In this document: positions 52,426 through 64,000 of the stretch, one piece after another
How positions within the stretch are numbered: the stretch's first letter is position 1
Layout of the letters: each line of letters starts with the position of its first letter
Source of the DNA: Candidatus Bathyarchaeota archaeon
GTDB lineage: Archaea; Thermoproteota; Bathyarchaeia; Bathyarchaeales; Bathycorpusculaceae
Reading direction: 5' to 3'
Length of the DNA: 64,000 nt
Assembly: GCA_963782525.1 (NCBI GenBank)
Contig: CAWAKC010000010.1
Location: 128,001 to 192,000, forward strand
Program-made: the position numbers and the translations under genes
The notes under the pieces: generated by a model
Database searches by the model: none
Told to the model about the DNA's origin: nothing
Seen by the model: the letters and a program-made list of their open reading frames with translations, nothing else

Positions 52426-53484
52426 TTACCGCTTGCGTTTCTTGAAGTAAACCAGTAACCCTATGCCTATAACAGCTATTGATACTATGGATGCCGTGAC
52501 TAATGTTGTTGGGAAAGGCTCTAATTGCTTAGGTTCAGGTGTTGGAGCAGGTTCTTTTGAAGGATTTGGTTGTTCTTCCATAAGACTTGTTGTCGGGTGA
52601 AGCCAAGGAAATAGTGAAGGGTCAAAAGAAATTGAAATAGGACTTGAAAGTGGCGATTTGTCAAAGATATTGCCACTGAATTCTTTGTGGGAGTTGTTCC
52701 AATAGTTAGAATATAAATTGTTGTTAGAGCCTTCTTGGCAGGAGACTCCTATATCATTATTGATGAAATTATTTTCAAAAATATTATTATTTGAATTAGT
52801 GCCATAACAATAGACCCCTATTCCAACATTACTACCGTTGTTATTGGTAATGTTATTTCTGTAAATGTTAGAGTAGCTAATAGTAACCCACGCACCATGC
52901 CAACCGTTTCCTGCGATGGTATTATATGCAATATCCAGAAAACTTGAATCCGAACTAGCAAACCCCGAGAAGAAGTTATCGACTATCTCATTGGCTATAA
53001 TGCTACAGTTAACGCTCGAAGACATACAAATACCTGACATTCCATTGCGTATAATGTTTTGAATAATAACAATATTTGTTGAATGGTCAACACTAATACT
53101 GGTGTAGCATTTATCGAACTTTATGTTTCTGATAGTGATGTTATCTCTATTTGGGATTCGAATGGATGGAAACCAACCAGTTGGCGTCATAAGCCCCTCT
53201 GTGTTAACTACAGGCGGTTTCATGATTGAAAAACCATTTCCATCAATTATGATGTTATCTTTTTGGACTTCTATAGTTTCGTTAATATGCCTAACAAAAG
53301 TGTAGATATCTCCACCTCGCTGTATAGCTCCGTTTCCTCCTTCAATAGTTCCATTTTCTGTTATGTAAATTGGCTTTGGCAGTTCAGGAAGCGGGGTAAA
53401 ATTTGCCCTTGACATAGGTATTGCTGATAACAACGTAATTGCTAATACTATTATGATTGTTGTTGCCAAGAGTTTCTTTGGCAT
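52426..53484 (-). CDS. NosD/CASH right-handed beta-helix surface protein
   Basis: Signal peptide, DNIIIDGNG, Asn-rich GI...NNI..N repeats, EPFPTT-TM-FKKRKR terminus. Confidence 0.85.
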   Translation of the reverse strand: MPKKLLATTIIIVLAITLLSAIPMSRANFTPLPELPKPIYITENGTIEGGNGAIQRGGDIYTFVRHINETIEVQKDNIIIDGNGFSIMKPPVVNTEGLMTPTGWFPSIRIPNRDNITIRNIKFDKCYTSISVDHSTNIVIIQNIIRNGMSGICMSSSVNCSIIANEIVDNFFSGFASSDSSFLDIAYNTIAGNGWHGAWVTISYSNIYRNNITNNNGSNVGIGVYCYGTNSNNNIFENNFINNDIGVSCQEGSNNNLYSNYWNNSHKEFSGNIFDKSPLSSPISISFDPSLFPWLHPTTSLMEEQPNPSKEPAPTPEPKQLEPFPTTLVTASIVSIAVIGIGLLVYFKKRKR

Positions 53485-54799: not shown

Positions 54800-55267
54800 T
54801 TATTTGCTCAATCCAAGTTGTTGCATGAAGCCCACAACATCGTAGAATAATCGTTCTTCAACGATTTCGCCGTCTTTCCATGTGACAACTGTGCAGAATT
54901 CGAGTTTCGCAGTTTTTCCTGTTGGCGGAATCATTTTTCCGTCTGCGCCTTTCATGGGTCCTTTCATGGGTCCTTTCATGGTTACGGTCCAATCAGCAAC
55001 GGTGCAGGTGTGATCTCCCTCGCCGAAAATGATCTTGTAGGGGTTGTTGGCGAGTTTGTTGTCGAATGTTTTGAAAAATTCTGTGGCTTCGACGTCGTGG
55101 TTGAAGCGTCCAACGGTGGGGAGAGGTTGGGCTGGCCAGAATACTTTGACGTCTTCTCGGTGGCGTTTCTTAAAAGTCTCCCAAAGTGGGCTGTTAGGTC
55201 CGGCATTCCAAGCATCATCAAGAGTCTTCATAAATTCAAGATTTTCTTTAACACCCAAAAAATTCAC
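54800..55267 (-). CDS. SnoaL-like ester cyclase / NTF2-fold protein
   Basis: IIFGEGD, TMKGP...IPPTGK, WKDGEIVEERLFYD...QQLGL; 12-bp in-frame tandem duplication (MKGP). Confidence 0.85.
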   Translation of the reverse strand: MNFLGVKENLEFMKTLDDAWNAGPNSPLWETFKKRHREDVKVFWPAQPLPTVGRFNHDVEATEFFKTFDNKLANNPYKIIFGEGDHTCTVADWTVTMKGPMKGPMKGADGKMIPPTGKTAKLEFCTVVTWKDGEIVEERLFYDVVGFMQQLGLSK

Positions 55268-56549: not shown

Positions 56550-59141
56550 TTATTTATTTTTGAATATGAGTTGACCGTTTTTTTCATCCACGATAATCGT
56601 TGTGTCTTTGTTGACTTTTTCAGATAACATCATCTTTGAAAGTTCGTTTAGGATGTCTTTTTGGATAACACGTTTTATTGGTCTGGCGCCGAATTGAGGA
56701 TCAAATCCAACATTGGCAATGTAGTCTATGGCTTTTTTGGTGGCTGAAAGTTTTATGTTGTTTTTTTCAAGCATTTGCTCAACTTGTCGTAGCTGCAACT
56801 CCACTATTTTCCGAATTTCCTCTTGGGTGAGGGGTTGAAACATAATTATTTCGTCGATTCGGTTGAGGAATTCTGGTTTGATGCTTTTCTTGAGTAACTC
56901 AAAAACTTGCTCTTTGGTTTGATTTAGGATGTGCTCTCGGTTTTCAGATGTAATTTTTTCCAGGTTTTCTTGGATGAGGTGGGAGCCTATGTTTGACGTC
57001 ATAATGATGATGGTGTTTTTGAAATCGACTGTTCGACCTTTATTATCAGTCAATCGACCATCATCGAGAACCTGCAGTAAAATATTGAAAACATCCGGAT
57101 GGGCCTTCTCGATTTCATCAAGCAAAACAACAGCGTAAGGCTTTCTTCGCACCGCTTCAGTTAACTGTCCGCTTTCTTCATAGCCAACATAACCCGGCGG
57201 GGCACCCACAAGCCGAGAAACGGTATGCCGCTCCTGATACTCCGACATATCAATCCGAACCATATTGTTCTCGTTGTTGAATAGAAACTCTGCTAAAGCC
57301 TTGGCTAATTCAGTTTTTCCAACCCCAGTGGTACCTAAGAAAATAAAAGACCCAATTGGGCGCTTAGGATCTTGCAGGCCAGCGCGACTCCGCCGCAACG
57401 CATCAGAAACCGCTTGGATTGCTTCATCCTGCCCAACAACCCTCATGTGAAGCTCAGTTTCTATGTTTAGCAGCTTTTGCTTCTCAGTCTGTAGCATACG
57501 ACTAACAGGAATTCCCGTCCAGCAAGAAACAACCTCAGCAATTTCCTCCCCACCTACCTCTTCATTTACCAGCGCTGAATCCTTCTGTAACTCTGTTAAT
57601 TTTTTCTTCAAATCCTCAATCGCTTTAGTCGCATTGGGAATTCTGCCATACCGAATCTCGGCAACCCTTCCAAGATCGCCCCGACGGTTAGCATTTTCCT
57701 CTTCAAATTTTAACTGTTCAATCTCATTTTTCTTTGCTTGAATCTGATCAACAATTTCTTTCTCAGCATGCCACTTTGCCCGTAAACTATTGCGTTGCTC
57801 AGTTAAATTTGAGATTTCCTGATTTAGCGACTTGAGCTTAACTTCATTTTTTTCTTGTTTGATGGCTTCACGTTCAATTTCCAACTGCCGAATCTTCCGA
57901 TCAACATCCTCAAGTTCCTGAGGCTCAGAATTGATTTCAAGCTCCAACTTAGAAGCCGCTTCATCAATCAAATCAATCGCTTTATCGGGCAGAAAACGCT
58001 CAGTAATATACCGAGAAGATAACTCAGCAGCTGCAATTATTGCATCATCTCTAATTCGAACGTGATGATACACTTCGTAACGCTCTTTTAAACCTCGAAG
58101 GATAGAGATGGTGTCCAAAACATTAGGTTCATTAACCATAACAGGCTGAAAACGTCTCTCTAAAGCCTTGTCTTTCTCAAAATACTTCTGATATTCCTTC
58201 AAAGTCGTTGCACCAATAGCACGCAACTCGCCTCGCGCCAACGCAGGCTTAAGAATATTAGCCGCATCCATAGCGCCCTCGCCGCCGCCTGCCCCAACAA
58301 GCGTATGAATCTCATCGATGAAAAGCAAGATATCACCCTCTGCTCCCACGACTTCCTTAATTACACTCTTCAAACGCTCCTCAAATTCTCCCTTGTACTT
58401 GGCACCAGCAATCAAAGCACCCATATCAAGAGAAAAAACCTGCTTTGACTTCAAATTCTCAGGAACATCACCATTAATTATGCGCTGAGCAAGGCCCTCA
58501 ACGATAGCTGTTTTACCCACACCCGGCTCGCCGATCAATATAGGATTGTTCTTTGTCCGTCTAGACAGAATCTGAAGAACCCGCCGAATTTCACTGTCAC
58601 GGCCTATAACTGGATCTAATTTTCCAGCCTGAGCCATACTGTTTAAGTTGATGGCGTACTTGTTGAGGGCATTGTAAGTTTCTTCTGCAGTCGCCGAATT
58701 AACAGAAGACCCCTTACGCAACTGACTAATCGCAGACTTGAGATCTTTTTCATTAACACCACTACTTTTGAGCAAACGCGAAGCAGAATCATTCAACGAC
58801 AATATAGCCAACAACAATTGCTCTATCGAAACAAACTCATCCTTAGCAGCCGAAGCCAACTCTTGAGCCTTATGAACTGCCTTATTGGAATTTGATGAAA
58901 GATACTGTTCTCCCCCGCTAACTTTAGGTAAAGAATCAATTTCCTTATCAAGCAACCCTGAGAAAGAGTCAGAGTTGACACCAAGTTTTCTAAGCAAGAA
59001 AGGAACCACATTCTCATCAACAAGCAAGATCCCCTTTAGCAAATGAAGCGGCTCAACAGCCTGATTGCGACCTACAGAAGCAATTTCTACAGCCTTCTGA
59101 ATAGCTTCCTGCGATTTAACCGTAAAATTATTCAAACTCAT
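56550..59141 (-). CDS. clpB: ATP-dependent disaggregase ClpB
   Basis: Clp-N repeats, GKLDPVIGRDSEIRR, GEPGVGKT, coiled-coil M domain, GTTGVGKT, RIDMSEY, GARPIKR; ATG 59141 follows a GGTGG SD. Confidence 0.97.
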   Translation of the reverse strand: MSLNNFTVKSQEAIQKAVEIASVGRNQAVEPLHLLKGILLVDENVVPFLLRKLGVNSDSFSGLLDKEIDSLPKVSGGEQYLSSNSNKAVHKAQELASAAKDEFVSIEQLLLAILSLNDSASRLLKSSGVNEKDLKSAISQLRKGSSVNSATAEETYNALNKYAINLNSMAQAGKLDPVIGRDSEIRRVLQILSRRTKNNPILIGEPGVGKTAIVEGLAQRIINGDVPENLKSKQVFSLDMGALIAGAKYKGEFEERLKSVIKEVVGAEGDILLFIDEIHTLVGAGGGEGAMDAANILKPALARGELRAIGATTLKEYQKYFEKDKALERRFQPVMVNEPNVLDTISILRGLKERYEVYHHVRIRDDAIIAAAELSSRYITERFLPDKAIDLIDEAASKLELEINSEPQELEDVDRKIRQLEIEREAIKQEKNEVKLKSLNQEISNLTEQRNSLRAKWHAEKEIVDQIQAKKNEIEQLKFEEENANRRGDLGRVAEIRYGRIPNATKAIEDLKKKLTELQKDSALVNEEVGGEEIAEVVSCWTGIPVSRMLQTEKQKLLNIETELHMRVVGQDEAIQAVSDALRRSRAGLQDPKRPIGSFIFLGTTGVGKTELAKALAEFLFNNENNMVRIDMSEYQERHTVSRLVGAPPGYVGYEESGQLTEAVRRKPYAVVLLDEIEKAHPDVFNILLQVLDDGRLTDNKGRTVDFKNTIIIMTSNIGSHLIQENLEKITSENREHILNQTKEQVFELLKKSIKPEFLNRIDEIIMFQPLTQEEIRKIVELQLRQVEQMLEKNNIKLSATKKAIDYIANVGFDPQFGARPIKRVIQKDILNELSKMMLSEKVNKDTTIIVDEKNGQLIFKNK

Positions 59142-59438
59142 GCTAACCACCAAAATTATTGGTAAGTCGACTAAACTCTACAAAACCAGAAATGATTTCC
59201 CCCAATTAAAGTTTTAGGCAAAAACCACAAAAAAACTGGATACTAAAAAGCCATCCAGCATCACAATCCTGATGCTTTCTTTTAACTTCAAGATGGTTGA
59301 TAGTTCGCTTCTTCCACCAATTAACTAACGTTCGCGTTAAAAAATTAGCCAAGTTAAAAGAAGAAAAAACTGGTCTATATATAAGACGTTTTTTTCCTTA
59401 AAAGAATCCTTATATGCCATTTTCTGTAGTAGGCTTGC

Positions 59439-59958: not shown

Positions 59959-60414
59959 CTATGCTAATTTTGCTCCGCAATTAATGCATTTGGAAGCGTC
60001 GGGTTGATTTTTGGTTCCGCAGTATGAGCAGATTATCATAGCTGGAGTTGTTTCTTTAATTAACGCTTGGGTTTGAGCTTTGTAGATGTTGTCTCTTATT
60101 GTTCTGTAGGCTTTTTCTGCGTCATCTTTAGGTACATCGATTAGTATTAGCTGTGGTGCTGCGGATTTGAAGGTGCATCTGATTGTTGAACGCAGTATTC
60201 CCTTGTCTATGATTACATTTTCAAAATCTAAGTAGTTGTAGTCAGTGAAGTCTTTTTTTAATCCGAGTGCGTGAGGATGGCGCAAGATTACTCTCTGGTT
60301 GGTTATAACGACCGAGTCAATGTCAATCGCGAGATGGTAAAACTTTTGTTTAATGTAGAGTTCAATGGTCTCGTTAGGATCAAGTATATCTTTCATATCA
60401 TCAGGAGTCGCCAT
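59959..60414 (-). CDS. Bacterial PH-domain + C-terminal zinc-ribbon protein
   Basis: DSVVITNQRVI, KGILRSTI; CSYCGTKNQPDASKCINCGAKL. Confidence 0.85.
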   Translation of the reverse strand: MATPDDMKDILDPNETIELYIKQKFYHLAIDIDSVVITNQRVILRHPHALGLKKDFTDYNYLDFENVIIDKGILRSTIRCTFKSAAPQLILIDVPKDDAEKAYRTIRDNIYKAQTQALIKETTPAMIICSYCGTKNQPDASKCINCGAKLA

Positions 60415-60633: not shown

Positions 60634-62058
60634 ATGCGCAAATTGAATACAAAACAACCCAATGAACCAAATCCACTTGCATCTAAAAACCAGACAACTG
60701 AGCAATTAAACCACCAAGAACTAGCCCAATCAATACTTTCACCGTTTATCCACCTATTCAACATTAATGAAACGACGAAGTGCCTTTTCAACTCTTTAAC
60801 TCTAAAAAAAGTATACTTAACCAATGATATGTACGCTAAGCTTTTAACAGATCTAAGTTTGGGAAACCGCAGTAAAGACGTTGAAAGTTTAATCGATCTG
60901 AAATTTATAGTGCCTCGAGGTTTTGATGAGATAAAAGTGTTTGACAGCATTGCAAACAGCGTGCTCAGAAAAAAACCTTCAACCAACCTTGCATACATTT
61001 TGGTAACGGACTTTTGCAACTTCAGATGCGGTTACTGCTTCATTGAAAACTCTCTAAAAGGGCCAAGCATTTCAATGTCTAAGGATTTGGCAGATAAAGT
61101 CATAAACGTTCTGATCAACGAAGCAAAACAAGTCCCAGAATACAGAGTCACATTTTATGGAGGAGAACCATTCAGCAACAGCGAAATCGTCTTCCACATC
61201 ATCGAAAAACTTGAGCAGGCAGCTAAAGACAAATTCAAATTTTCCTGCGTCACCAACGGAAGTCTAGTAACCGAAGATTTAGCTAAAAAACTCAAACAAC
61301 ACAACGTTACAGTAGGATTATCGCTTGACGGATGGGCCAACATCGACAAAAACCGTGTGTTTACCAATGGAAAAGAAACCTTTTACTCAGCACTTAAAGC
61401 GTTAACGCTCTTAAAAGAAGCCGAAGTAAATGTGGGAATATCATGCACAATCACAAAACAGAACTACCAATACGCAGAAGAAGTAGTTGAATTTATCCAA
61501 AAATTAGGAATCAGAACCATAGGGTTCAATTTGTTAACTAGACTCAAAGAGCCAAGCGAATATGAAGTTCCAGACCCAAAACAACTCGCCCACCACCTCT
61601 TTAACGCATACTTAAAAGCAAACGACTTGCACATGTTTGAAGATCGCATAGGGAATCGGCGAGCAAATTATTTTTTCAAAGAAATATTTCATTTGTACGA
61701 TTGCCCCGCGTTTGGTCAACTAATATTTTTTTCACCAGCTGGAACAGTTGGACCTTGCCACGCGTTCTATCCGTCAGGAAAATATCAAATTCCAATTAAA
61801 GATAATTTGAAAGTCCCAGAAGAACCATTGTTTTACAAATGGTTGGAACTTGGCACCCTAAAGAATAAAGACTGCATGAGGTGTCCTGCCATCGGAATTT
61901 GCGGAGGAGGATGCGCATACGATATATACGTTAAAACAGGTCAACTTGGCATCAAAGAAGACTATTTTTGCACCTTTCAAAATGAAATACTCAAGCTCCT
62001 TCTATCCTACAATTTCCTGATGACCCCTCAAAATAAGCGCAGAAAAACGAAAAGTTGA
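60634..62058 (+). CDS. Radical SAM/SPASM peptide maturase with probable N-terminal RRE
   Basis: CNFRCGYC; FYGGEP; VTNG; SLDG; SPASM Cys set DCPA...GPCH...CMRC...ICGGGC...YFC; ~110-aa N-terminal extension ending LIDLKFIV. Confidence 0.92.
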   Translation: MRKLNTKQPNEPNPLASKNQTTEQLNHQELAQSILSPFIHLFNINETTKCLFNSLTLKKVYLTNDMYAKLLTDLSLGNRSKDVESLIDLKFIVPRGFDEIKVFDSIANSVLRKKPSTNLAYILVTDFCNFRCGYCFIENSLKGPSISMSKDLADKVINVLINEAKQVPEYRVTFYGGEPFSNSEIVFHIIEKLEQAAKDKFKFSCVTNGSLVTEDLAKKLKQHNVTVGLSLDGWANIDKNRVFTNGKETFYSALKALTLLKEAEVNVGISCTITKQNYQYAEEVVEFIQKLGIRTIGFNLLTRLKEPSEYEVPDPKQLAHHLFNAYLKANDLHMFEDRIGNRRANYFFKEIFHLYDCPAFGQLIFFSPAGTVGPCHAFYPSGKYQIPIKDNLKVPEEPLFYKWLELGTLKNKDCMRCPAIGICGGGCAYDIYVKTGQLGIKEDYFCTFQNEILKLLLSYNFLMTPQNKRRKTKS

Positions 62059-62194
62059 AAACTTTCATCTCCAAACAGCAAGAAACCCGCGACCAAGCTA
62101 AATCAAAAAAGCCCGGCAAACAATTGCCAATCTACCAATGTAATAAATGAAAAAGACATGCACACTTTTGACCTTAACTTTGCGCCAGATTAAT

Positions 62195-62217
62195 TTTTAC
62201 AATAAATATAAATATTG
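62195..62217 (+). promoter_or_regulatory. Candidate TATA-box promoter of the precursor gene
   Basis: TTTTACAATAAATATAAATATTG about 30 nt upstream of TTG 62242. Confidence 0.4.
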
Positions 62218-62241
62218 TTACTCACTACAACAATGTAGTGA

Positions 62242-62685
62242 TTGTTTTTGTCAAAAAATAAATCAAAAGCTAAAGCTCCCTCCAAAAAACCCACTTCTAC
62301 AATGCTTAATAAAAATCAAACCCGCGCGGCGCCAAAAAAAATGACCCCAGCCCAAACTAAACGGTTAAAAACAATTTTAGCAAAAATGCCACCTATCGAG
62401 AAAATAGATCCTGCAATGTATGCGAAGCTACAGTCAACGATTCATGATGTAGTAGTTAAAGCGTTGCCTGAATACCAGCAATGGGTGGGCGCAAACCTGG
62501 TAGCTGATGACTGTCCGACACCCTTGTGTAGCTCATGCGGCAACGATTGCCCAACTCCGTTATGTAGTTCATGTGGAAATGACTGTCCGACGCCAATTAA
62601 AGACATTGATGATCTTGTCAATTCGGCTGTCGAAAAGGCAATGACCGCGGCAATTCGTCAAGCTTTGGAAAAACAATTCAAATAA
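62242..62685 (+). CDS. Putative multi-core Cys-rich RiPP precursor
   Basis: Basic/helical leader, (DCPTPLCSSCGN)x2 + DCPTP, helical follower; lies between two radical SAM genes. Alternative ATG starts at 62302 and 62341. Confidence 0.8.
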   Translation: MFLSKNKSKAKAPSKKPTSTMLNKNQTRAAPKKMTPAQTKRLKTILAKMPPIEKIDPAMYAKLQSTIHDVVVKALPEYQQWVGANLVADDCPTPLCSSCGNDCPTPLCSSCGNDCPTPIKDIDDLVNSAVEKAMTAAIRQALEKQFK

Positions 62686-62987: not shown

Positions 62988-64000
62988 ATGCGTGTAATTC
63001 TTTGTATCCCTCCAGTTTCTTCGTTAGTTCCTTATCCTGCAATTCCATACTTAACAAGTAGTCTGAAGGCAAATAATCAAAAGGTTAGTACTTTTGATCT
63101 GAACATTAAGGCTTTTAATTCAACTCTTTTTCGCATAGGCGTGGATATTAAGCCCGGAAAAATTTTACGTAACATTAATCCTGGCGTAAGCGCGAAATGG
63201 ACCAAAGTTCCTGAGGCAAATATTTACTCGACCATGCGAGAGAGCAAAGAAATTTTCGAAGAAATTATGTCAGAAGAGGCGGCTGATCAATTAGGTTGTC
63301 CCCATTCAAACTTAAAGTCCAGATATACCATAACCACAGAAGTAAAACAGCAAATAATTTCGGATGTTTGGAAAACTTGTAACAATTGGTTATCGGAGCT
63401 TGCCAGTGATACCAAAGAACAAAGTATTATAGGCTTCCATGTAATTAGTCAAACTGGATTGTTGTGGAGCATACTTCTTTCGCGAAAATTAAAGAAAATT
63501 CTTCCCAGGATTTTAACAGTCTTGGGAGGTCCGGCATTCCTCGCATGGGGCAAAGTTCTCTCTACCCATCCCGAAATTGACATAATAGTTCGAGGGGAAG
63601 GCGAGACAACAATCTCTGAAATAGCAAATTTCTATGACGGAAGCTTAGAATCAATAAAAGGAATCAACGGAATTTCATACCGAAACAGAGAAAATAAAAT
63701 TATTACCGTTGCGGACCGCCCATTAATAAAATCTCTTAATGCTTTGCCTTTTCCCAATTATGATGATTTGCCATTAAAAGAATACCCTCAGAACAAGTTC
63801 GAGATGCCTATAATTCCAGTTGTCGGCTCTAGAGGATGCATTGGAAACTGCGTTTTTTGTGTTGAAAAACGCTTATGGGGGAACACCTATCGGATGCGTA
63901 CACCTGAAAATATCTTATCCGAATTCAAAAATATTAAAGAAAAATGTGGGCCTTCTTTTATTCGCTTCAACGACAGTTTAATTAATTGTAATATAAAGTC
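62988..64000 (+). CDS. Cobalamin-binding radical SAM enzyme (class B methyltransferase-like), truncated by the window end
   Basis: Hand translation MRVILCIPP...YPAIPYLTSSLKANNQKVSTFDLN...VLGGPA...IDIIVRGEGE...GSRGCIGNCVFC...YRMRTPENILSE; the CxxxCxxC motif is in frame with ATG 62988. Absent from the ORF track because there is no stop in the window. Confidence 0.92.
   Translation, partial: MRVILCIPPVSSLVPYPAIPYLTSSLKANNQKVSTFDLNIKAFNSTLFRIGVDIKPGKILRNINPGVSAKWTKVPEANIYSTMRESKEIFEEIMSEEAADQLGCPHSNLKSRYTITTEVKQQIISDVWKTCNNWLSELASDTKEQSIIGFHVISQTGLLWSILLSRKLKKILPRILTVLGGPAFLAWGKVLSTHPEIDIIVRGEGETTISEIANFYDGSLESIKGINGISYRNRENKIITVADRPLIKSLNALPFPNYDDLPLKEYPQNKFEMPIIPVVGSRGCIGNCVFCVEKRLWGNTYRMRTPENILSEFKNIKEKCGPSFIRFNDSLINCNIK

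Follow-up and report, generated by a model that had tools for sequence, protein, structure and literature searches.

The twin cysteine-rich repeats encoded near the end of the window, that is, of the whole 64,000-nucleotide stretch of DNA that was analyzed, are probably the core of a RiPP-like precursor protein of about 15 kDa that would be thioether cross-linked and methylated. Its gene lies in a four-gene cassette, together with the genes of a radical-SAM/SPASM enzyme, a B12-binding radical-SAM enzyme and a class-I SAM methyltransferase. We favor a RiPP-like modified protein because of the adjacency of these genes, the matching phyletic pattern of precursor and enzyme, the combination of a constant leader with varying cores, and the affinities of the encoded enzymes.

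Sequence and codon usage of the twin repeats

The core of the precursor consists of two units and a cap:

62509..62544, plus strand: core repeat 1, DCPTPLCSSCGN, encoded by GAC TGT CCG ACA CCC TTG TGT AGC TCA TGC GGC AAC
62545..62580, plus strand: core repeat 2, DCPTPLCSSCGN, encoded by GAT TGC CCA ACT CCG TTA TGT AGT TCA TGT GGA AAT
62581..62595, plus strand: terminal cap DCPTP, directly after repeat 2, whose CPTP closes the array

In the translated open reading frame, the cysteine spacing of the unit is C-x4-C-x2-C-x3-C. A codon comparison showed that the repeats differ at 10 of 36 bases, every one of them a third position, and hence at 10 of 12 codons, exactly as the original prediction had described (same protein, all differences synonymous). 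With random placement of changes and 7.7 synonymous sites per 36, the probability that all ten differences are synonymous is about 2e-7. When codons were drawn independently from the usage of this genome, 7.6 of 12 were expected to differ, and at least 10 did so with P = 0.11. The pair is at synonymous saturation, not beyond it. Taken together, the two probabilities therefore speak for old age and purifying selection, not for selection for unlike DNA. The latter was rejected, as 10 of 12 lies within the saturation expectation, and it is also disfavored by the DNA-identical repeats kept in some homologues. Slippage or an assembly artefact was rejected as well, in line with what had been proposed: the two copies have no more than 26 of 36 bases in common, and the family comprises 124 members.

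Architecture of the precursor gene and protein

The precursor gene and the blocks around its core were defined as follows:

62242..62685 (or from 62248), plus strand: precursor protein gene, stop codon at 62683-62685, supported by the open reading frame, 124 homologues and start-codon conservation
62242..62343, plus strand: Lys/Ser/Pro-rich basic N-terminal tail, residues 1-34, pLDDT <50, dN/dS 0.55
62344..62508, plus strand: conserved helical leader, residues 35-89, helices with block pLDDT 79-88, dN/dS 0.17
62596..62682, plus strand: conserved helical follower, residues 119-147, helix 122-146 with pLDDT 74-85, dN/dS 0.33

Translation from the TTG at 62242 yields 147 residues and from the TTG at 62248 145 residues. 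The latter appears to be the more likely start, because among homologues with the N-terminal motif an equivalent TTG was present in 29 of 29, as against 22 of 29 for the upstream one. The N-terminal (M)SKNKS is nearly invariant and common to the precursor and the methyltransferase of the cassette. The conserved start stands in the context TTT TTG (T/C)CA AAA AA(T/C) AAA, and is preceded, at a distance of about 30-45 nt, by an AT-rich, TATA-like stretch (window 62190-62250; methyltransferase genes, loci L043-L066). Of ten methyltransferase genes inspected, seven have an in-frame stop just five codons 5' of the TTG. These features suggest that the transcripts are short or leaderless and that translation starts at TTG.

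We modeled the precursor with AlphaFold2 from a 91-row alignment (mean pLDDT 65.5). The model contains helices at residues 36-47, 52-55, 57-86 and 122-146 with block pLDDT values of 74-88, while residues 1-34 are disordered and the core (89-116) has a pLDDT below 50. The follower reads KDIDDLVNSAVEKAMTAAIRQALEKQFK, as given in the original prediction, and the proposal that the cores are internal, between a leader and a follower, holds: both flanks are conserved and predicted to be helical. The model is compatible with a pairing of leader and follower as a hairpin that would present the Cys core as a loop. A Foldseek search of the model against the PDB gave no match at E≤0.001, a wide VIA-align search retrieved only generic helical hairpins and bundles (best Z 4.9), and the ESM Atlas contained no usable match. 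No Pfam and no NCBIfam family matched the precursor, including the metal-binding, Fer4, zinc-ribbon, metallothionein and Nif11/NHLP families.

Distribution and repeat evolution of the precursor family

In a collection of 5.8 billion proteins, 124 of 137 candidates were homologous to the precursor at E≤0.01, and a Pfam domain was found in none of these 124. One homologue (P0110) is labeled Candidatus Bathyarchaeia archaeon, and no other taxon label was seen. The family is narrow, since only 17 proteins were retrieved when 1.84 billion cluster representatives were searched with a profile. Among 401 sampled genomes of the class, the precursor occurred in four, all from one genus, and within that genus in 22 of 120 genomes (E≤1e-5).

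To count repeats, a strict unit was defined as C-x4-C-x2-C-x3 followed by Cys, a definition which units without the first Cys escape. Among 120 homologues, taken from the matches listed, 3 had no strict unit, 22 had one, 60 two, 34 three and 1 four, so the repeat number runs from 1 to at least 4 across the family. Of the 117 homologues with at least one strict unit, 111 have CPTP after the last one. The consensus of 248 units is C1 P2 [T/V]3 [E/P/Q]4 [L/V/I]5 C6 S7 [S/A]8 C9 [G/S/D]10 N11 [D/Q]12. The three Cys, Pro2 and Asn11 are invariant, and Ser7 and Ser/Ala8 are conserved beside Cys. Position 12 is D in 175 units, Q in 68, E in 4 and N in 1. A C1-x-x-[E/Q]4 arrangement is present in 156 of the 248 units; the units of the window have Pro at position 4. 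The 248-unit consensus lacks a C-x3-D motif, which agrees with the earlier claim that a PapB-type CX3D is missing, but units end in C-x-x-[D/Q] (243 of 248). Homologues with n units (one to at least four) contain 3n+1 Cys residues.

Between adjacent units with the same peptide, the number of differing codons (of 12) ranges from 0 to 10, depending on the gene: 10 in the window, 10 and 8 in locus L057, 8 and 8 in L055, 0 in L059 and L043, and 1 and 0 in a paralogue on contig C3 of the same genome. The middle units of L054, L055, L057 and L058 are 1-3 nt apart between loci and 7-11 nt from their own neighbors. By this comparison the units are orthologous between species, and the duplication would therefore predate those splits. 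Some genes outside this set have re-expanded recently. The claim that the duplication is old thus stands for the units shared across species and does not extend to L059, L043 and the C3 paralogue, whose copies are DNA-identical or nearly so.

We determined dN/dS by the Nei-Gojobori method for 406 pairs of 29 short-type genes, without the long-type genes L064, L065 and the C3 paralogue, L072 with its divergent core and the frameshifted L067. By these values, purifying selection acts on leader, core and follower alike. The core had the lowest value of the four regions (0.13), below the leader, then the follower and the tail, with the reservation that core dS is inflated (160 pairs saturated), probably because the aligned units are not always orthologous. 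The comparison of copy number and dN/dS that had been recommended thus supports the suggestion of strong purifying selection on every core residue. Distant members of the family keep the leader and carry other Cys cores (e.g., P0122, P0124, P0134). A constant leader with varying cores is the usual RiPP pattern.

The C3 paralogue is a second precursor-like protein of 196 residues (contig C3:83140-83535, minus strand; locus L002 1279-1869) with three almost DNA-identical CPVEICSSCGND units and a Lys-rich C-terminal extension. In L069 and L070, a long-type precursor of this kind adjoins a radical-SAM enzyme of 70% identity.

We considered that the protein may be no substrate and may instead serve both flanking radical-SAM enzymes as a small metal or Fe-S partner, for example as an electron donor or as a cluster or cofactor chaperone, with each unit plus the next Cys supplying the ligands. 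Radical-SAM enzymes require a reductant, the conservation of all core residues would fit a ligand sphere, and single-unit homologues have exactly four Cys. The C-x2-C-x3-C-P of the unit also resembles the tail of the ferredoxin motif C-x2-C-x2-C-x3-C-P, and a profile search of PDB sequences produced sub-threshold matches that include HdrC (E ~ 0.7). However, all matches of that search were non-significant (E≥0.12), and the precursor contains only C-x2-C-x3-C-P, the complete motif being absent. Neither Fer4, zinc-ribbon and metallothionein models nor any other metal-binding family of Pfam or NCBIfam matched; a stand-alone metallothionein-like or metal protein was the outcome that the original prediction had named as speaking against a substrate. 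Moreover, 3n+1 Cys residues do not divide into four-Cys sites, distant members retain the leader while altering the Cys pattern, and the Cys-free version of the scaffold on the methyltransferase (see below) suggests a docking element rather than a metal domain. We therefore regard a metal-binding partner as improbable.

Enzymes of the cassette

Three enzyme genes accompany the precursor gene:

60634..62058, plus strand: radical-SAM/SPASM enzyme, 474 residues, Pfam Radical_SAM 78.6 bits (cutoff 29.5)
62988..64000, gene end at contig C10:192577, plus strand: B12-binding radical-SAM enzyme, 529 residues, Pfam B12-binding and Radical_SAM
contig C10:192648-193856 (locus L004 1405-2613), about 650 bases past the window end: class-I SAM methyltransferase, 402 residues, Methyltransf_31, 80 bits

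By its sequence, the 474-residue enzyme is the probable maturase. It contains the cluster motif CNFRCGYC (CxxxCxxC) and seven C-terminal Cys residues, including CMRCPAIGICGGGC, a CxxCx5Cx3C motif. The best NCBIfam models were FibroRumin radical-SAM (179 bits, cutoff 400) and PapB (150, cutoff 340), with further matches to CefB (126), QhpD (TIGR03906; 114, cutoff 453), nif11-type radical-SAM (114), AmcB (104), anaerobic sulfatase maturase (103), SCIFF maturase (102, cutoff 425), TIGR04463 (94.3, cutoff 525) and GrrM (94); models of cyclophane-forming and other SPASM enzymes lie at 90-104 bits. The enzyme scores below every curated cutoff and thus outside the PapB, SCIFF (ScfB), FibroRumin and TIGR04463 equivalogs, so that the reaction type is not confidently transferable. 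The maturase models align from residue 36-40 onward, and a PqqD (RRE) domain had no match in residues 1-125 at E≤10. The closest solved chain was 5wgg_A/5why (88 bits); 5WHY is CteB, according to PMC13692751. The C-terminal Cys region aligns to 5wgg_A, and no Pfam model, SPASM included, matched residues 289-474.

Of the B12-binding radical-SAM enzyme, 337 of 529 residues lie inside the window. This part is best matched by TIGR03975, a radical-SAM C-methyltransferase of RiPP maturation, with a score of 87.5 bits for the 337 residues, below the curated cutoff of 281.85.

The methyltransferase proved to be related to the precursor itself. Its first 140 residues or so are homologous to the tail, leader and follower (31-40% identity), and a short Cys-free linker takes the place of the repeats. 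When a tree was built from leader/follower domains without their cores and rooted at the midpoint only, ten methyltransferase N-domains formed one clade (support 100/97) that is sister to 30 short precursors (97/82); these ten are the intact-ORF copies, picked by pattern, from 24 regions with a methyltransferase gene. The tree is consistent with a single fusion of the precursor scaffold to the methyltransferase. A complex prediction for the N-domain (residues 1-145) and the precursor scored 0.44, with one control as high as 0.32, and was given no weight either way. The AlphaFold2 model of the full methyltransferase (10-row alignment, mean pLDDT 50.5) was too poor for domain packing.

If the precursor is the substrate of the cassette, the key chemistry could still be other than thioether formation: C-C or C-O cross-links, epimerization, or oxidation of Cys or Ser as by anaerobic sulfatase maturase, with the B12-dependent enzyme and the methyltransferase methylating the core. 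Such chemistry would be in keeping with scores that remain under all equivalog cutoffs and with the matches to cyclophane-forming AmcB, anaerobic sulfatase maturase and GrrM, as well as with anaerobic sulfatase maturase chains among the PDB matches and with the conserved Ser7 and Ser/Ala8 next to Cys. On the other hand, the invariant residues are the three Cys, Pro2 and Asn11, together with D/Q at position 12, and the unit lacks the aromatic residues that a cyclophane would need. Among the families with the highest scores are PapB, QhpD and SCIFF maturase, which are described as thioether-forming. In the Crp system, as described in PMC13692751, thioethers are formed at C-x-x-D/Q-type motifs. 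A different key chemistry is thus unlikely. Thioether formation is the most likely chemistry for the cassette, on the strength of analogy, because the related PapB, QhpD and SCIFF maturase are described as forming thioethers and because the unit has C-x-x-D/Q as in CrpA.

Synteny and co-inheritance

The proteins of the window were mapped by tblastn onto 33 regions, namely 31 fetched loci (±8 kb) and two regions of the same genome; several of the loci come from the same genomes. The original prediction took the precursor for a radical-SAM substrate and held that homologues without radical-SAM neighbors would count against this. Of the 33 loci, 28 had the radical-SAM/SPASM gene no more than 8 kb from the precursor, and the substrate reading withstands this check. 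The B12-dependent enzyme (≥60% identity) was present in 22 of the regions and the methyltransferase with the leader/follower domain in 24, while eight regions had a second precursor copy between these two genes. The loci without the radical-SAM/SPASM gene within 8 kb are L047, L051, L064, L065 and that of the C3 paralogue, and in each case the genome has a full cassette elsewhere. Among the 120 genomes of the genus, an orthologue of the radical-SAM/SPASM enzyme (E≤1e-60) occurred in exactly the same 22 as the precursor, which we treat as a pattern and not as a statistic because related genomes are not independent.

When ORFs of at least 100 residues were clustered and one antisense artefact inside the B12-dependent enzyme gene was set aside, only the precursor/methyltransferase family, the radical-SAM/SPASM enzyme and the B12-dependent enzyme recurred in more than six of the 33 regions; no conserved protease, exporter or immunity gene was found among these ORFs. 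The flanks of the cassette differ between genomes, while its gene order is fixed.

We also noted, in several relatives, cassette genes that are split into two or more frames or interrupted by stops (L044, L050, L055, L056, L058, L062, L067 and others; G455 and G437 contig 27 are examples), reflecting either pseudogenization or indel errors in long-read assemblies. Upstream of the cassette, the minus strand of the window encodes further proteins:

59959-60414, minus strand: 151-residue protein with a bacterial PH domain (bPH_3) and a C-terminal zinc ribbon, divergent from the radical-SAM gene
56550-59153, minus strand: 867-residue ClpB-type double AAA+ chaperone (Clp_N, AAA_2, ClpB_D2-small)
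54800-55267, minus strand: SnoaL-like protein with a short tandem KGPM KGPM KG insertion
52426-53484, minus strand: protein of the NosD/right-handed beta-helix type with a signal-like segment at the N-terminus and a hydrophobic C-terminal anchor that ends in KKRKR

The bPH_3/zinc-ribbon gene adjoins the cassette in L045 as well (89% identity) and is not generally conserved there; a ClpB-like gene also lies upstream of the cassette in L060.

An incidental adjacency, in which the precursor would be a regulatory or structural helical protein that, for instance, binds nucleic acid through its Lys-rich tail and bears a zinc-knuckle-like insert, could draw on the disordered basic tail, the hairpin-like helical model, the want of a family match and the paralogue without enzyme neighbors, but it is highly improbable given a phyletic pattern identical to that of the radical-SAM enzyme in 120 genomes, a gene order fixed in differing genomic contexts and a scaffold shared with the cassette's own methyltransferase.

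Proposed modification of the precursor

In our working model of a cross-linked, methylated precursor, the flanking helices would form a hairpin-like scaffold that displays the Cys array as a flexible loop and serves as a docking element for the cassette enzymes. The radical-SAM/SPASM enzyme would abstract hydrogen from side-chain carbons and join them to Cys sulfur, giving ranthionine-type thioethers. The most plausible links would connect C9 with [D/Q]12 and, for many homologues, also C1 with [E/Q]4; the units of the window have Pro4 and therefore no link of the E/Q type from C1 to residue 4. The B12-dependent enzyme would add C-methyl groups, and the look-alike domain of the methyltransferase would bring the fused enzyme to the same substrate or to the same enzyme complex. 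Since no protease or exporter accompanies the cassette, the product probably stays in the cell as a cross-linked protein and is not a secreted peptide.

Several observations speak against this explanation: conservation of the core exceeds that known from typical antimicrobial RiPPs, the C3 paralogue and four other loci have no enzyme within 8 kb, and C-x2-C-x3-C-P within the unit is similar to the last part of the ferredoxin motif. The scores of the radical-SAM/SPASM enzyme below all curated cutoffs, the lack of a PqqD or SPASM match in Pfam, Pro4 in the units of the window and the interrupted cassette genes of several relatives also count on this side.

A more specific version can be put forward only tentatively. 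Here, the leader/follower hairpin would present a multi-unit Cys loop, and the loop-less hairpin, fused once to the methyltransferase, would act either in homotypic targeting or by competing for the docking site; the product would be a thioether-stapled, methylated mini-protein that is retained in the cell, possibly as a metal or redox carrier. Were the hairpin reading true, substrate recognition would follow another logic than the usual one, in which an RRE binds a short leader.

If the precursor is indeed modified as predicted, RiPP-like chemistry would be documented, from its genes, for the Bathyarchaeia, an uncultured but abundant lineage. The system is compact: the cassette comprises four genes, and the unit is just 12 residues long and present once to at least four times, with natural variants that already map the indispensable residues. 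Through the shared leader/follower domain, it could be tested in a simple way how tailoring enzymes recognize their protein substrate. Independent of their chemistry, the repeats are a clean natural case of peptides that stayed the same as species diverged, with synonymous changes in their DNA accumulating to saturation.

Comparison with known systems

We found no paper on the family in the main texts of the literature on Bathyarchaeia radical-SAM RiPPs, archaeal ranthipeptides and the motif string, a scope that does not extend to supplements such as the CrpA-like list of PMC13692751. The passages found in PMC12144867 contain general mentions.

As predicted, the cassette would work along the lines of ranthipeptide, Crp and QhpC maturation. 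Freyrasin has a repeated donor-acceptor motif, and QhpD is a radical-SAM/SPASM enzyme that cross-links Cys to Asp or Glu side chains inside QhpC, a subunit retained as a protein. The cassette resembles the ranthipeptide and SCIFF systems (PapB/freyrasin, CteB/thermocellin) in its Cys-rich core and in a maturase of the same broad radical-SAM/SPASM group, with PapB at 150 bits and 5wgg_A/5why as the closest chain. It differs from them in scores below the equivalog cutoffs, a unit without C-x3-D, a long conserved leader with an additional follower, units with three Cys each and additional methylating enzymes, and it shows no sign of genes for leader removal or export. With QhpC/QhpD of quinohemoprotein amine dehydrogenase it shares a radical-SAM/SPASM enzyme that TIGR03906 matches at 114 bits; in contrast to that system, the score is below the cutoff of 453, no dehydrogenase genes are nearby and the substrate is repetitive. 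The long, conserved, helical leader recalls Nif11/NHLP RiPPs with B12-dependent C-methyltransferases (TIGR03975 group; proteusins), as do the best match of the B12-dependent enzyme, a RiPP C-methyltransferase model, and the 114-bit match of the nif11-peptide radical-SAM model to the maturase. Unlike in those systems, the precursor matches no Nif11/NHLP model, the B12-dependent enzyme reaches 87.5 against 281.85 bits and a follower helix is present.

A close parallel is with Crp of Methanococcus voltae, as described in PMC13692751, where enzyme-installed thioethers on whole proteins in archaea were first shown just recently (2026). Crp comprises the substrate CrpA, CrpB, whose N-terminus is shared with CrpA, and the radical-SAM/SPASM ranthisynthase CrpC, which installs ranthionine-type links on the 28.8-kDa repeat protein CrpA, as established by mass spectrometry, alkylation and desulfurization; C-x-x-D/Q is the motif reported for CrpA and CrpB (PMC13692751). 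Both systems are archaeal and combine a protein-sized substrate (≥100 residues) carrying a tandem Cys motif with C-x-x-D/Q, an adjoining radical-SAM/SPASM enzyme of the (here putative) three-cluster type and a second protein with the substrate's N-terminal region (here the methyltransferase N-domain), and no protease or exporter was identified in the cassette or, as far as PMC13692751 describes it, in Crp. They differ in that our enzyme lies outside the family of CrpC, TIGR04463 (94.3 bits, cutoff 525). The unit has 12 residues in 1 to at least 4 copies, compared with 17 residues in 10 copies in Crp, and leader and follower helices enclose the core, whereas that of Crp is C-terminal (PMC13692751). 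The cassette also adds a B12-dependent radical-SAM enzyme, and its look-alike domain is fused to a methyltransferase. With 4.8% Cys (7 of 147 residues), the precursor is below the 10% Cys filter that the Crp study appears to have used (as deduced from PMC13692751).

Judged by its genes, the cassette appears to differ from the known systems in a multi-unit core that is internal between two conserved helices, in the combination of a radical-SAM/SPASM enzyme with a B12-dependent radical-SAM enzyme and a class-I methyltransferase, and in a substrate scaffold fused to the methyltransferase alongside no conserved processing or export genes. Should the predicted chemistry be correct, the cassette would be a compact second example after Crp, with different enzymes.
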